From assembly GCA_043804895.1 (NCBI GenBank), contig JAZDIN010000035.1, positions 1-42,592 of the forward strand: a stretch of DNA of 42,592 nt, in the 5' to 3' direction. The stretch comes from Candidatus Altiarchaeota archaeon (lineage in GTDB: Archaea > Altiarchaeota > Altiarchaeia > IMC4 > SCGC-AAA252-I15). Every line of letters starts with the position of its first letter. Position 1 is the stretch's first letter. Below are positions 22,883 through 39,998 of this stretch, piece by piece. The position numbers and the translations under genes were made by a program. Below the pieces are notes generated by a model that did no database searches, had not been told where the DNA came from, and saw only the letters and a program-made list of their open reading frames with translations.

Positions 22883-22914
22883 TTTATTAAGGTTCTATGA
22901 CTAGGTATTACCTA
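22883..22914 (+). promoter_or_regulatory. TATA-like box and operator-like palindrome upstream of the aro leader
   Basis: TTTATTAA at 22883-22890, 23 nt before ATG 22914. The palindrome TAGGTA-T-TACCTA spans 22902-22914. Confidence 0.5.
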
Positions 22915-22991
22915 TGCGACTAGGGAACAGCAGTCTGAAAGTATTCACTCGAGGATTCCCTAGCTTCGGCTATTGCTCGTATACTTATTGA
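22914..22991 (+). CDS. Putative Phe/Tyr-rich leader peptide of the aroF-aroB operon
   Basis: MRLGNSSLKVFTRGFPSFGYCSYTY*: 3 Phe and 3 Tyr in the last 15 codons, directly upstream of DAHP synthase. Confidence 0.65.
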   Translation: MRLGNSSLKVFTRGFPSFGYCSYTY

Positions 22992-22994
22992 ATT

Positions 22995-23051
22995 CAGGAC
23001 TCATATCCTGTTTTCTTGATAAACATGTCCTCAACAACAAAAATGTTTTTT
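22995..23051 (+). terminator. Candidate attenuator: hairpin and T-tracts
   Basis: CAGGA-CTCATA-TCCTG followed by TTTTCTT, with a second T6 tract at 23046-23051. Confidence 0.45.
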
Positions 23052-23155
23052 AACCCGATGGCGGGCGTCAGCTTCATGGCATGCCTAGTCTACAGTGCAG
23101 CCAAACTGGCGCAACTGAAGCCTACGGGATTAGATGCAGCGTGTGAGGTGGAAAA

Positions 23156-24172
23156 ATGATAGTAGTAATGGGCAAGCGTGCGACTTCGCAAGATGTGGAA
23201 GCACTCTCGCAGTGGGCCAAGGCAAAGGGAATAAAGGTTCACTTGTCGCAGGGTGAGGAGCGGACAATAGTCGGCCTCATTGGCGATGTGAGGCAGCTGA
23301 CAAAGGAAAAAATCGAGATGATGGGCGGCGTGGAGAAGGTAATGTCCGTGTTGAAACCCTACAAACTCGTCTCAAGGGAGTTCCACCCTCAAGACACAAT
23401 CATACAGGTCGACGGTGTCGAGATCGGCGGAAACGATTTTGTCGTAATTGCCGGACCCTGTGCCATCGAATCTGAACAGCAGTTGTTCGAAACAGCCGAC
23501 AGGGTGAAAAAAGCAGGCGTGAAAATATTCAGGGCGTCGGCATACAAGCCGCGAACGAGCCCATACTCGTTCCAGGGTCTTGGGCTAAAGGGTCTGAAAA
23601 TGCTGAAAAAACTCAGAAAAGAAACAGGATTGATTGTGGAGACTGAAGTGATGGACATCAGAACCCTTGGTAGTGTCGTAAAACACGTGGACATAATCCG
23701 GATAGGGGCGAGAAACATGCAGAATTTTGATCTCTTAAAAGAAGTCGGAAAAATCAACAAACCCGTCATACTCAAGAGGGGGATATCAGCGACTATCGAG
23801 GATTTCCTCCTTTCAGCTGAATACATCGCAAGCGAAGGAAACGAGAAAGTGATACTGTGTGAGCGAGGCATAAGGACATTTGAAACTGCGACAAGGAGCA
23901 CACTGGATTTAAGCTCCGTGCCTGTCGTGAAGGAGCTATCCCACCTGCCCATAATCGTAGACCCAAGCCATGCCGCCGGAAAATGTTCACTAGTGGCGCC
24001 CCTAAGCAAGGCGGCCTTGGCCGTGGGCGCGCACGGCTTATTAGTTGAAGTGCATTGTGACCCTAATACGGCCCTTTGTGATGCGCAGCAGGCTTTAACA
24101 CCAGACGACTTTGATAAGCTGATGCTGGACCTAAGACGGATAGGGAAGGCATTGAAGAGGGACATCTCATGA
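23156..24172 (+). CDS. aroF: 3-deoxy-7-phosphoheptulonate (DAHP) synthase type I-beta with N-terminal regulatory domain
   Basis: IAGPCAIES, AYKPRTSPYSFQG, IGARNMQNF, LCERGIRTFE and DPSHA. N-terminal MIVVM...HLSQGEERTIVGLIGD. GAGGTGG ribosome-binding site. Confidence 0.96.
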   Translation: MIVVMGKRATSQDVEALSQWAKAKGIKVHLSQGEERTIVGLIGDVRQLTKEKIEMMGGVEKVMSVLKPYKLVSREFHPQDTIIQVDGVEIGGNDFVVIAGPCAIESEQQLFETADRVKKAGVKIFRASAYKPRTSPYSFQGLGLKGLKMLKKLRKETGLIVETEVMDIRTLGSVVKHVDIIRIGARNMQNFDLLKEVGKINKPVILKRGISATIEDFLLSAEYIASEGNEKVILCERGIRTFETATRSTLDLSSVPVVKELSHLPIIVDPSHAAGKCSLVAPLSKAALAVGAHGLLVEVHCDPNTALCDAQQALTPDDFDKLMLDLRRIGKALKRDIS

Positions 24173-38324: not shown

Positions 38325-38327
38325 ACC

Positions 38328-39806
38328 CTAGCTTCTCCGCATTATTATCGCGTTCAGGCCGTTTATCATCGCATCCACTGAAGCCATGATTATGTCGGTG
38401 CCAGCGCCTTCTGCAGTGATTATCCTGCCTCTGCTCTTCAGCTTGACTAGTATCCTCACGAGCGCGTCAGTCCCTCCAGAGACTGCATCAACATGGTATT
38501 CTGCAAGCTCGAACGGAACGTCCTTCGTCGCCACCTTTATCGCGTTGATGGCCGCGTCCACTGGGCCTGTGCCACTGCCCATGGAGGTTATGGTGTCGCC
38601 GTTTATCTGCAACTTAACTGTCGCATTCGGGGTTATCTTGTTGCCGCCAGTGGCCACAAGTTCGAGTAGCTTTATCGGCTTCTCCTTTGTGACTCCAAGG
38701 ACGCTGTTGGCTATGGTGTCAAGGTCCACGGAGGTGACTCTCTTACCCTTGTCTCCTATGGACTTCACCTGCTCGTATACTCCTTTCGCCTGCTCGTCAG
38801 TCATACTGAACCCAGATTCCTCAAGCAGCTTCTTCACACTCTTGAAACCGACGTGTTTCCCTAGTACGAACTTCCTCCTCGCCCCCACAATCTCCGGCTT
38901 AATCGGCTCATAGGTGCTCGGCTTCTTAAGTATCCCGTCCACATGGATTCCGGCCTCATGGGTGAATGCGTTCTCACCGACTATCGCCTTGTTCGGCGGC
39001 ACCGGGATCTTCGTCAGCTTCTCGACGAGCTGGCTTATCCTGTTCAAACCCTCAATCCTAATCTTGAACTTATGGCCTGTCGTAAGCCTCAACGCGACCG
39101 CAACCTCCTCAAGAGCCGTATTGCCTGCGCGCTCCCCTAGGCCGTTGACTGTGACATCAACCACCCTAGCTCCAGCCTTCACTGCAGTGACAGTGTTCGC
39201 AGTCCCCATCCCGAAATCGTCATGGCAGTGGACTCCAACAGGTATCCTAGCCTTTTCAGTCAGCTTCTCGAACAGTTCTTTTGTCTTCTCAGGATTCAAT
39301 ATACCGACCGTGTCCGCGACAGTGAACCTGTCAGCCTTCGCGTCCTGCGCGGCTTTCATAACCTTCAACAGGTAGTCCAACCCTGTTCTTGAACCGTCCT
39401 CGCAGCAGAGGTCGACCTTGACGCCGTGGCTTTTACAGTACTCTGTCATCTCAGTGACCTTCGCCAGAACCTCCTCCCTCGTGCTCTTCAACTTCCATTT
39501 GATGTGCAAATCCGAGGTAGGAGCTACAAGGAATATTGAATCCACCTCACAGGAGAGGGCAAGGTCCACATCGCCTTTAACTATCCTCGCGAAGCTAGCA
39601 ATCTCAGCCTCAAGGCCTTCATTCGCTATGGCCTTGATGCTCTCCCTCTCCCCTTCGCTCGTGCACGCGCTCCCAGCCTCTATGATGTCAACCCCCAAGT
39701 TGTCCAAGGCCTTCGCTATCCTAACCTTCTCTTCTGTGGTTAGGGATACTCCGGGCATCTGTTCCCCGTCCCTCAATGTTGTGTCCAAAAACAATATTTG
39801 AGCCAT
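38328..39806 (-). CDS. cimA: (R)-citramalate synthase (archaeal CimA-like; LeuA family)
   Basis: DTTLRDGEQ, HCHDDFG, GLGERAGN, HEAGIH and a C-terminal regulatory domain. IEAGSA..SEGE resembles methanogen CimA rather than the EAGFP of LeuA. Confidence 0.8.
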   Translation of the reverse strand: MAQILFLDTTLRDGEQMPGVSLTTEEKVRIAKALDNLGVDIIEAGSACTSEGERESIKAIANEGLEAEIASFARIVKGDVDLALSCEVDSIFLVAPTSDLHIKWKLKSTREEVLAKVTEMTEYCKSHGVKVDLCCEDGSRTGLDYLLKVMKAAQDAKADRFTVADTVGILNPEKTKELFEKLTEKARIPVGVHCHDDFGMGTANTVTAVKAGARVVDVTVNGLGERAGNTALEEVAVALRLTTGHKFKIRIEGLNRISQLVEKLTKIPVPPNKAIVGENAFTHEAGIHVDGILKKPSTYEPIKPEIVGARRKFVLGKHVGFKSVKKLLEESGFSMTDEQAKGVYEQVKSIGDKGKRVTSVDLDTIANSVLGVTKEKPIKLLELVATGGNKITPNATVKLQINGDTITSMGSGTGPVDAAINAIKVATKDVPFELAEYHVDAVSGGTDALVRILVKLKSRGRIITAEGAGTDIIMASVDAMINGLNAIIMRRS

Positions 39807-39827
39807 TTTAAGCGATTATTAATCTTT

Positions 39828-39907
39828 GCGGTTGTTTGGAAAAAAACAGCAACAACCTGCTTCATCTTCCGATTATTTGTAGGGTGGTGTGTGGAGCTTA
39901 AGCTCCA
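39828..39907 (-). promoter_or_regulatory. Candidate attenuator region: palindrome over the leader stop, T7 tract and alternative hairpins
   Basis: Perfect 16-bp palindrome TGGAGCTTAAGCTCCA (39892-39907). The minus strand reads AGCAGGTTGTTGCTGTTTTTTTCCAAACAACCGC. Confidence 0.5.
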
Positions 39908-39963
39908 ATAATCAGAACTATAATGCCAAACAAGGCCAGTGAACCGGCACCAAACATCCTCAT
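39898..39963 (-). CDS. Putative Ile/Leu/Val-rich leader peptide of the cimA-leuC-leuD operon
   Basis: MRMFGAGSLALFGIIVLIIGA*. A TATTTAAA box lies about 25 nt upstream of the ATG. Confidence 0.65.
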   Translation of the reverse strand: MRMFGAGSLALFGIIVLIIGA

Positions 39964-39998
39964 ATAAGGAACAAATAGGAAGTGCCGGTTTAAATACG

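Follow-up and report, generated by a model that had tools for sequence, protein, structure and literature searches.

The stretch of DNA analyzed here (the window) is a contig of 42,592 nucleotides (nt), JAZDIN010000035.1, from Candidatus Altiarchaeota archaeon assembly GCA_043804895.1. The assembly is a metagenome-assembled genome (MAG) of 1.58 Mb in 71 contigs, 88.7% complete, in which the window is contig C35; it also encodes archaellin, a TrpY-family regulator, and GatD, which are typical archaeal genes. Two gene groups for amino acid synthesis lie in the window: aroF and aroB on the forward strand, and cimA with leuC-like and leuD-like genes on the reverse strand. Each is preceded by a short upstream open reading frame (uORF) with codons for the pathway's own products clustered toward its 3′ end (Table 1). 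An initial annotation of this DNA had described both uORFs as candidate attenuator leader peptides, and both are present at the positions it gave. A TATA-like box precedes each by about 27-30 nt, and each is followed by hairpins, an oligo-T tract, and the gene for an enzyme. We examined the anatomy of these leaders, their conservation among relatives, and the occurrence of similar frames elsewhere in the genome.

Gene-start statistics were compiled for the 954 long genes of this genome that have at least 50 nt of DNA 5′ of the start codon. A TATA-like 8-mer is found at positions -38 to -24 from the start codon in 536 of these genes, compared to 499 of 1806 random intergenic positions, and a Shine-Dalgarno (SD)-like 4-mer is found in just 183 of the 954. 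Judging from these sequences, leaderless starts look to be the norm for most genes in this genome. As a background for the uORFs we used all 1073 small open reading frames (sORFs) of 8-45 codons that begin with ATG in the 954 upstream regions.

The cimA uORF of the window encodes 4 Ile, 3 Leu, and 1 Val among its last 13 residues. Only three entries among the 1073 sORFs have 4 or more Ile codons in their last 10, and two of these are nested starts of the cimA uORF itself. The end of the last Ile codon and the last two sense codons make up the 5′ arm of a hairpin that we call P1, and the stop codon sits in its loop. From the uORF stop to the cimA start is 91 nt. In the window locus there is no TATA-like 8-mer between the T7 tract and cimA, so that transcription of cimA would have to start at the uORF promoter and pass the T tract. 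The cimA product is 65-80% identical to proteins labeled Candidatus Altiarchaeota or Altiarchaeales at NCBI, and its close homologues are named (R)-citramalate synthase by JGI.

We compared the 450 nt upstream of cimA at 30 loci, comprising the window locus and orthologues from 29 relatives with 61-83% identity; one locus of the other families offered 118 nt only. A uORF that starts with ATG and ends in an Ile cluster precedes cimA at 14 of the 30 loci. All 14 are among the 19 loci of the same family (0/11 in other families), and the five loci of this family without the uORF belong to four genomes of one genus and one genome of another. The length of the uORF ranges from 12 to 31 codons and its N-terminal part cannot be aligned. 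Near the stop codon, however, Ile is found at codon -3 in 14/14 (ATT in 13, ATC in 1) and at codon -4 in 13/14 (ATT in 7, ATA in 6), with 3-5 Ile within the last 10 codons. A TATA-like 8-mer is present at the right spacing in all 14 leaders (with a score of 8 in 11 and 7 in 3), and the best-scoring 8-mer is centered 29-37 nt before the uORF ATG in 13 of them. Thus, the Ile-rich uORF noted in the initial annotation is a conserved element at 14 of the 19 family loci, in which the Ile codons and the placement of start and stop are kept while the rest drifts.

P1 is conserved along with the frame. A P1 of at least 5 bp is found in 13 of the 14 cimA leaders, compared to 105 of 919 background sORFs (11%) in the same permissive search. 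The arms take 7 different sequences over the 14 leaders: the last two sense codons follow the 5′ arm, which reads GGAGC, GGGGGC, GGGACT, GAAGGC, GGGGCC, or GGGC, and the complementary arm comes directly after the loop with the stop codon. When the arms are registered from the loop outward, a figure that is fitted to the structure, 98.6% of positions are paired, compared to 83% when 3′ arms are swapped between leaders, and 0 of 1000 swaps reach the observed value. Third-position changes that keep Ile, together with arm changes that keep the pairing, point to selection at both the coding and the RNA level.

Downstream of P1, all 14 cimA leaders contain a G-poor spacer with 8% G and 34% C, compared to 17% and 18%, respectively, in the rest of the leaders. 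This G-poor, C-rich stretch is reminiscent of bacterial Rho-loading sites; we know of no archaeal factor that reads one. Next comes a T5-T8 tract, present in 12 of the 14 leaders, and in 10 of those 12 it ends 31-41 nt before the cimA ATG. We considered whether the placement of the T tract in a hairpin loop, as seen in the window and in loci G003 and G004, is a general feature, and rejected it: over the 12 loci the mean score was 4.5 versus 3.8 for shuffled flanks, which is not significant. A search for perfect stems of up to 12 bp with loops of up to 11 nt found no upstream stem scoring above 4.5 before the T tract in the 12 leaders; by eye, a long hairpin is seen directly 5′ of the T tract at locus L017. 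A covariance model of the cimA motif (R1), searched against 61 genomes of the phylum, returned only its 14 founding loci, one per genome and always before cimA, with no new members and none before other genes.

A third matched leader lies outside the window, on contig C4, where a uORF with a run of Leu codons precedes a cimA paralogue that scores best as 2-isopropylmalate synthase (leuA). Its last 12 codons include 7 for Leu, the second strongest single-residue enrichment among the 1073 sORFs. The center of a TATA 8-mer lies 27 nt before its ATG, and the uORF ends 175 nt before leuA; the interval contains two G+C-rich hairpins, each followed by TTT. In a first batch of 20 relatives, one had just 11 nt of upstream DNA; among the remaining 19, a Leu-run uORF was found in 16, was ambiguous in 2, and was missing in 1. 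A second batch of 12 loci, 11 with upstream DNA, gave 1/11, with 0/10 in the other large family.

In each of the 15 clearest leuA leaders, Leu accounts for 6-8 of the last 12 codons, and the TATA box is centered 27-36 nt before the ATG. Every one of the six Leu codons occurs (TTG 36, CTG 31, CTT 22, TTA 11, CTA 7, CTC 1). Here, too, a hairpin begins in the last two sense codons and includes the stop codon, in this case within the stem. It has 13 pairs, 7 of them with compensatory changes; 90.8% of cells are paired, compared to 35-50% when the partner is slid, and 0 of 500 shuffles reach its covariation score. Even the third base of the stop codon (TAG/TAA) covaries with its partner. A second helix inside the leuA uORF, GGGTTC with GAACCC, was seen by eye in some sequences and was not recovered by RNAalifold. 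Because the paralogous synthases each carry the leader of their own product, Ile with cimA and Leu with leuA, chance or mere synteny is not an easy cause of these arrangements.

The aroF uORF encodes 3 Phe and 3 Tyr among its last 15 residues and ends 164 nt before aroF. At least 6 Phe, Tyr, or Trp (F/Y/W) residues in the last 15 are found in 7 of the 1073 sORFs, and among the 180 sORFs with a well-placed TATA-like 8-mer they are found in 2: the aroF uORF and one before an AAA-ATPase gene. A minimum free energy (MFE) fold of the single sequence predicts a helix within the uORF, whose 3′ arm overlaps the first Phe-Pro-Ser codons of the F/Y-rich part. The aroF leader has no hairpin spanning the uORF stop codon in the form seen at cimA and leuA. 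It has instead a 5-bp hairpin beyond the stop; we infer only that a ribosome held at the last Tyr codon would cover the 5′ arm of this hairpin. The SD-like sequence before aroF implies that aroF itself is translated from a leadered RNA. The aroF product, a 3-deoxy-D-arabino-heptulosonate 7-phosphate (DAHP) synthase, has an N-terminal extension of about 70 residues ahead of the catalytic domain. In related enzymes an extension of this kind is a Phe/Tyr-binding regulatory domain, and its occurrence here fits a Phe/Tyr signal.

Orthologues of aroF were sought in the 61 genomes of the phylum, in genus-level DNA, and in two large collections of genome and metagenome contigs. The gene is found in 2 of the 61 genomes and was not found in the four other genomes of the genus (completeness 70-92%); in the sole other aroF-bearing genome it abuts the preceding transketolase gene, with no gap. 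Genus-level DNA comparison shows that the neighboring leuB and DUF434 genes are held in common, and aroF-aroB and the leader are not. The nearest homologues in the two large collections, from DPANN-type archaea and Clostridia-like bacteria, are at most 61% identical (55-61% among the genome contigs). The segment at 22346-25298, with aroF-aroB and the leader, resembles a lineage-specific acquisition.

Among the 158 homologous aroF loci with at least 150 nt of upstream DNA, a sense-strand ATG-initiated sORF whose last 15 residues include 6 or more F/Y/W is present at 22, compared to 2 for the antisense strand. Archaeal-style TATA-to-ATG spacing is seen at two of the loci with F/Y/W leaders. At L042, in a Nanoarchaeota MAG, the uORF ends with 10 F/Y/W in 15 residues and a TATA 8-mer starts 35 nt before the ATG. 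At L131, on a metagenome contig, a 22-codon uORF located 333-264 nt before aroF ends in F/Y/W codons, with a TATA 8-mer starting 32 nt ahead of its ATG. The stop codon of this uORF lies inside the loop of a 5-bp CTGGC/GCCAG hairpin, which is followed by a G-poor stretch and then by a hairpin and a T5 tract in T-rich sequence, the same layout as in the Altiarchaeota cimA leader. Leader peptides with runs of Tyr/Phe were also observed at many bacteria-like DAHP synthase loci (L177, L149, L085, L196, L188, L099, L089, L082, L079, L185, and others).

The initial annotation had suggested that this lineage uses a genome-wide system of leaderless uORFs. The Leu-run uORF adds a third matched case to that proposal. 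"Genome-wide" is nevertheless too broad, as no further matched leaders were found in the genome among the sORFs enriched for W, H, T, V, K, P, R, and other residues, and several enriched sORFs precede genes of other functions. The strongest single-residue enrichment among the 1073 sORFs, 8 Arg in 12 codons, lies before the gene for the TrpY-family regulator. This frame was rejected as a leader: it has no TATA box and is out of frame with an SD-led open reading frame of 50 codons, and we take it as chance.

Table 1. Features of the three leaders and of the genes downstream; positions are those of the window unless a contig is named.
Feature	Position	Strand	Remarks
aroF leader, TATA-like box TTTATTAA	22884-22891	+	8-mer starts 31 nt before the uORF ATG, the leaderless spacing of this genome
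aroF uORF MRLGNSSLKVFTRGFPSFGYCSYTY	22914-22991	+	ATG at 22914; 25 codons + TGA; stop 22989-22991
Predicted 8-bp helix within aroF uORF, CTAGGGAA with TTCCCTAG	22920-22927 with 22956-22963	+	single-sequence MFE fold
aroF leader, hairpin CAGGA-CTCATA-TCCTG	22995-23010	+	5 bp; begins 3 nt past the uORF stop
aroF leader, TTTTCTT	23011-23017	+	directly after the hairpin
aroF leader, second oligo-T tract (T6)	23046-23051	+	
SD-like GAGGTGG	23145-23151	+	ends 4 nt before the aroF ATG
aroF, DAHP synthase	23156-24172	+	NF006421, 502 bits
aroB, 3-dehydroquinate synthase	24169-25293	+	TIGR01357, 364 bits; start overlaps aroF stop
cimA leader, TATA box TATTTAAA	39996-39989	-	upstream of cimA uORF
cimA uORF MRMFGAGSLALFGIIVLIIGA	39963-39898	-	ATG at 39963; 21 codons + TAA (39900-39898)
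Ile codons ATT ATA of cimA uORF	39924-39919	-	
Ile codons ATT ATT of cimA uORF	39912-39907	-	
Hairpin P1, TGGAGC-TTAA-GCTCCA	39907-39892	-	stop codon TAA in loop
G-poor, C/A-rich spacer after P1	39891-39872	-	20 nt; no G in the window locus
T7 tract	39846-39840	-	flanks GGTTGTT (39857-39851) and AACAACC (39836-39830)
cimA	39806-38328	-	
leuC-like large subunit	38178-36925	-	
Isochorismatase-family gene	36928-36368	-	PF00857, 158 bits
leuD-like small subunit	36384-35881	-	
Leu-run uORF before leuA paralogue	contig C4, about 20493-20594 (locus L197, 694-795)	+	33 codons; outside the window

The anatomy of the leaders, their conservation, the match between codons and pathway, and the covariation of P1 are matters of observation. 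Based on these, we consider it fairly probable that the uORFs are cis-acting leader peptides by which the ribosome reports the supply of the operon's own end product. At the level of sequence, sensing through cognate codons is well supported for Ile at cimA and for Leu at leuA, and it is plausible for Phe/Tyr at aroF. Transcription would begin at or just before the uORF AUG and yield a leaderless or near-leaderless RNA; the TATA centers of the cimA and leuA uORFs, 27-37 nt before the ATG, fit a transcription start at the ATG or a few nt before it. The first ribosome would then read the short frame and meet the cognate codons in its last third: Ile for cimA, Leu for leuA, and probably Phe/Tyr for aroF. 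These codons lie directly 5′ of P1, a hairpin to which the last two sense codons, the stop codon, and the bases that follow all contribute, an arrangement with the 1:2 geometry of bacterial attenuators. A ribosome awaiting charged tRNA on the cognate codons would cover the 5′ arm and keep P1 open, and one that finishes and leaves would allow P1 to form. The state of P1 would most likely decide whether polymerase stops at the downstream oligo-T tract, either intrinsically or through FttA/aCPSF1, or reads through into the enzyme gene.

Archaeal polymerase terminates at oligo-T without the need of a hairpin, and in the cimA leaders regulation would act, as the best candidate, at the T5-T8 tract. 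FttA binds U-rich nascent RNA 30-36 nt behind polymerase (PMC11616081). We tentatively extend the proposal, though as less likely than not, to a ribosome-directed regulon of the Altiarchaeota for Ile, Leu, and aromatic amino acids. Such a regulon would operate on leaderless uORFs and without an antiterminator: the stop-codon hairpin and the G-poor spacer would set the hand-over of untranslated RNA to termination by oligo-U and FttA/aCPSF1, and the constrained placement of the U tract (31-41 nt ahead of the start codon) would correspond to the reach of FttA on nascent RNA.

Several observations weigh against this account. It is from DNA sequence that we deduce where transcription starts, that the uORFs are translated and cotranscribed with the enzyme genes, which way the response goes, and that termination is the output. 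A search for sequencing runs with window positions 30101-40100 listed none. The relatives are kin, and counts over them therefore overstate independence. On an ungapped alignment, 78.6% of the cells of the cimA P1 are paired, and its covariation score, equaled or exceeded by 61 of 500 shuffles, is not significant; this count is weak because loop lengths differ. Duplexes of the P1 3′ arm with downstream sequence, as a 2:3 antiterminator would require, are no better than shuffles in any of the 14 cimA leaders (fractions 0.065-0.81), and a classical antiterminator is therefore not supported; folds constrained by masking the ribosome-covered bases gave no common alternative structure. Two of the 14 cimA leaders have no T5+ tract, and in one of these cimA begins just 35 nt after the uORF stop; the leuA leaders have T3-T4 tracts only. 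A loosely TATA-like A/T-rich 8-mer, often the T tract itself, lies 23-50 nt before cimA in 10 of the 14 leaders, so that a separate cimA promoter is possible at those loci. The genome also contains mismatched frames: F-rich sORFs before the pyruvate phosphate dikinase and P-type ATPase genes, a Y-rich sORF before the archaellin gene, and the TATA-preceded F/Y/W-rich sORF before the AAA-ATPase gene. Another, in the window itself at 4968-5069 (+), is a TATA-preceded H-rich sORF of 33 codons with four His in its last 15; it precedes a sugar-1-phosphate nucleotidyltransferase gene, and we take it as a chance control. For aroF, no orthologous leader was found in the 61 phylum genomes, the genus-level DNA, or the two large collections. 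The aroF uORF rests on one sequence and on analogy, with aromatic residues at just 6 of 15 positions, and as a leader is plausible.

We considered how far these points favor other explanations. The leader peptides could be real sensors whose output is translation initiation or the stability of the downstream message, on the model of the mycobacterial polycysteine sORFs, for which a mechanism of this kind is described (bioRxiv 10.1101/834739). P1 does resemble a pairing of SD with anti-SD, having 5′ arms of GGAGC, GGGGG, or GAAGG and 3′ arms of GCTCC or CCTCC, and at L008, L015, and L021 the best partner of a freed P1 3′ arm is the SD-like stretch before cimA. The lack of a T5+ tract at two cimA loci and in most leuA leaders, which mostly do have an SD, would also be accommodated. 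However, the cimA gene of the window and those of 5 other loci (6/14) have no SD-like 4-mer to hide. Where pairing of the 3′ arm with the SD is predicted, it is with the ribosome stalled that the SD would be masked, the opposite of what a biosynthetic gene needs. Moreover, duplex energies are no better than shuffles, and no consistent SD-hiding duplex emerges. We regard this alternative as rather unlikely. Another possibility is that each uORF stands apart as a small gene or RNA motif that the T tract terminates, that cimA and leuA are read from promoters of their own, and that synteny or promoter interference accounts for the arrangement. A T tract after a short gene has the look of any archaeal terminator, and the A/T-rich 8-mers before cimA are in line with this view. 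In addition, 10 of the 12 tracts end 31-41 nt from the ATG, a range shared in part with the TATA-to-start distances seen in this genome. Pure T runs with G/C flanks would nonetheless make poor TATA boxes, and the window locus has no TATA-like 8-mer there. Peptides of 12-31 residues with unalignable N termini do not constitute a conserved protein, and separate genes would leave unexplained the constancy with which the Ile frame accompanies cimA and the Leu frame leuA, as well as the single copy per genome, always before cimA, found with the covariance model. This explanation therefore seems to us highly improbable.

For aroF, the alternative is that an open frame arose by chance in a 5′ leader or in intergenic DNA, and that only the branched-chain leaders are functional. 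The scarcity of aroF in the phylum (2/61), the position of the other copy directly after a transketolase gene, the lack of an orthologous leader, homologues of 61% identity or less, and a modest density of aromatic residues are all in keeping with chance, as is the equally enriched TATA-preceded sORF before the AAA-ATPase gene. Set against this, the probability is about 1% or less that one of the approximately 2-7 such sORFs among 954 regions would precede the first enzyme of aromatic synthesis, F/Y/W leaders are common on the sense strand before homologous aroF genes, and the same genome uses the leader design for Ile and Leu. A chance frame at aroF thus remains a serious possibility, short of being the probable one.

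The proposed leader peptides invite comparison to known systems. The enterobacterial attenuators include trpL, hisL, leuL, ilvL/ivbL, pheL, and thrL. Like these, the Altiarchaeota leaders consist of a short same-strand ORF before the first gene of the pathway (aroF, cimA, or leuA), with a cluster of cognate codons near the 3′ end and an N-terminal part that is free to vary. In the cimA and leuA leaders the stop codon lies in or beside a hairpin that starts at the cognate codons (1:2), and a U run, of T5-T8 in 12 of the 14 cimA leaders and of T3-T4 only at leuA, is found further downstream. They differ in having an archaeal TATA promoter and an apparently leaderless start in place of a sigma-70 promoter and an SD, in having no detectable 2:3 antiterminator (in the cimA leaders), and in having a T tract that usually lacks a preceding G+C-rich hairpin. 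The polymerase, too, is archaeal, terminating at oligo-T without a hairpin or with FttA.

A second point of comparison is the mycobacterial "Cys ribulon." In that system, ribosomes stalled on leaderless polycysteine sORFs block a duplex that hides the ribosome-binding site (bioRxiv 10.1101/834739). The likeness lies in a short ORF, apparently leaderless in our case, as the first cistron, in a run of cognate codons, and in the linking of several operons to one amino acid via ribosome pausing. The difference is that the mycobacterial system is bacterial and acts by release of the ribosome-binding site, whereas the window cimA has no SD and we found no sequestering duplex.

The aroF leader can also be compared to the F/Y leaders before type I-beta DAHP synthase genes of Clostridia-like bacteria, with which it shares the enzyme family (50-57% identity) and an aromatic-rich peptide. 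At the bacteria-like loci L177, L089, and L196 the leader is followed by a G+C-rich terminator hairpin and a T run, with bacterial SD or -10 elements as judged by eye; the window aroF leader, unlike these, combines an archaeal TATA box and an apparently leaderless ATG with T4/T6 tracts and a hairpin that is weak, at 5 bp. In Rfam, the window has no match at the gathering score, the aroF leader has none up to E=10, the cimA leader has chance-level matches only (E 1.7-8), and 0 of the 20 aroF loci tested match any family. The Tyr/Phe leader class before bacterial DAHP synthase genes thus seems to be uncurated in Rfam.

Other genes in the window touch on the same pathways. Two tandem leuB-type dehydrogenase genes lie at 25943-26998 and 27017-28186 on the reverse strand (TIGR00169, 508 and 515 bits), with a 245-nt stretch that is 81% identical between the copies; the copies may be divided between the citramalate route and leucine synthesis. 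Within the cimA group, the isochorismatase-family hydrolase gene sits, with an overlap at each end, inside what is otherwise an isopropylmalate isomerase pair (leuC-like and leuD-like), an unusual insertion. Between the two groups of amino acid genes, an ORF of 1869 residues at 30283-35892 (+) encodes HEAT repeats and a C-terminal DUF294 nucleotidyltransferase pair.

In bacteria, the textbook demonstration that transcription-translation coupling serves regulation is leader-peptide attenuation. Archaea also couple the two processes, with a eukaryote-like polymerase and a different terminator. The initial annotation had remarked that attenuation of this kind is little demonstrated in archaea, and our full-text literature searches returned no cognate-codon leader peptide in an archaeon, with the proviso that supplementary lists of translated sORFs could hold cases. 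In the small-proteome ribosome-profiling (Ribo-seq) papers on Haloferax and Methanosarcina, uORFs or leader peptides are mentioned solely by analogy to bacteria or eukaryotes, or within a reference. The design described here is one known from bacteria, found in a domain for which full-text searching located no published case. The matching leaders support the annotation of the two paralogues, which family models cannot separate, as citramalate synthase and isopropylmalate synthase. They also raise the question of how a ribosome signals to archaeal polymerase or to FttA. Kept across genera, the Ile-cimA and Leu-leuA leaders offer a clean natural experiment, with defined short sequences that can be transferred to tractable archaea.

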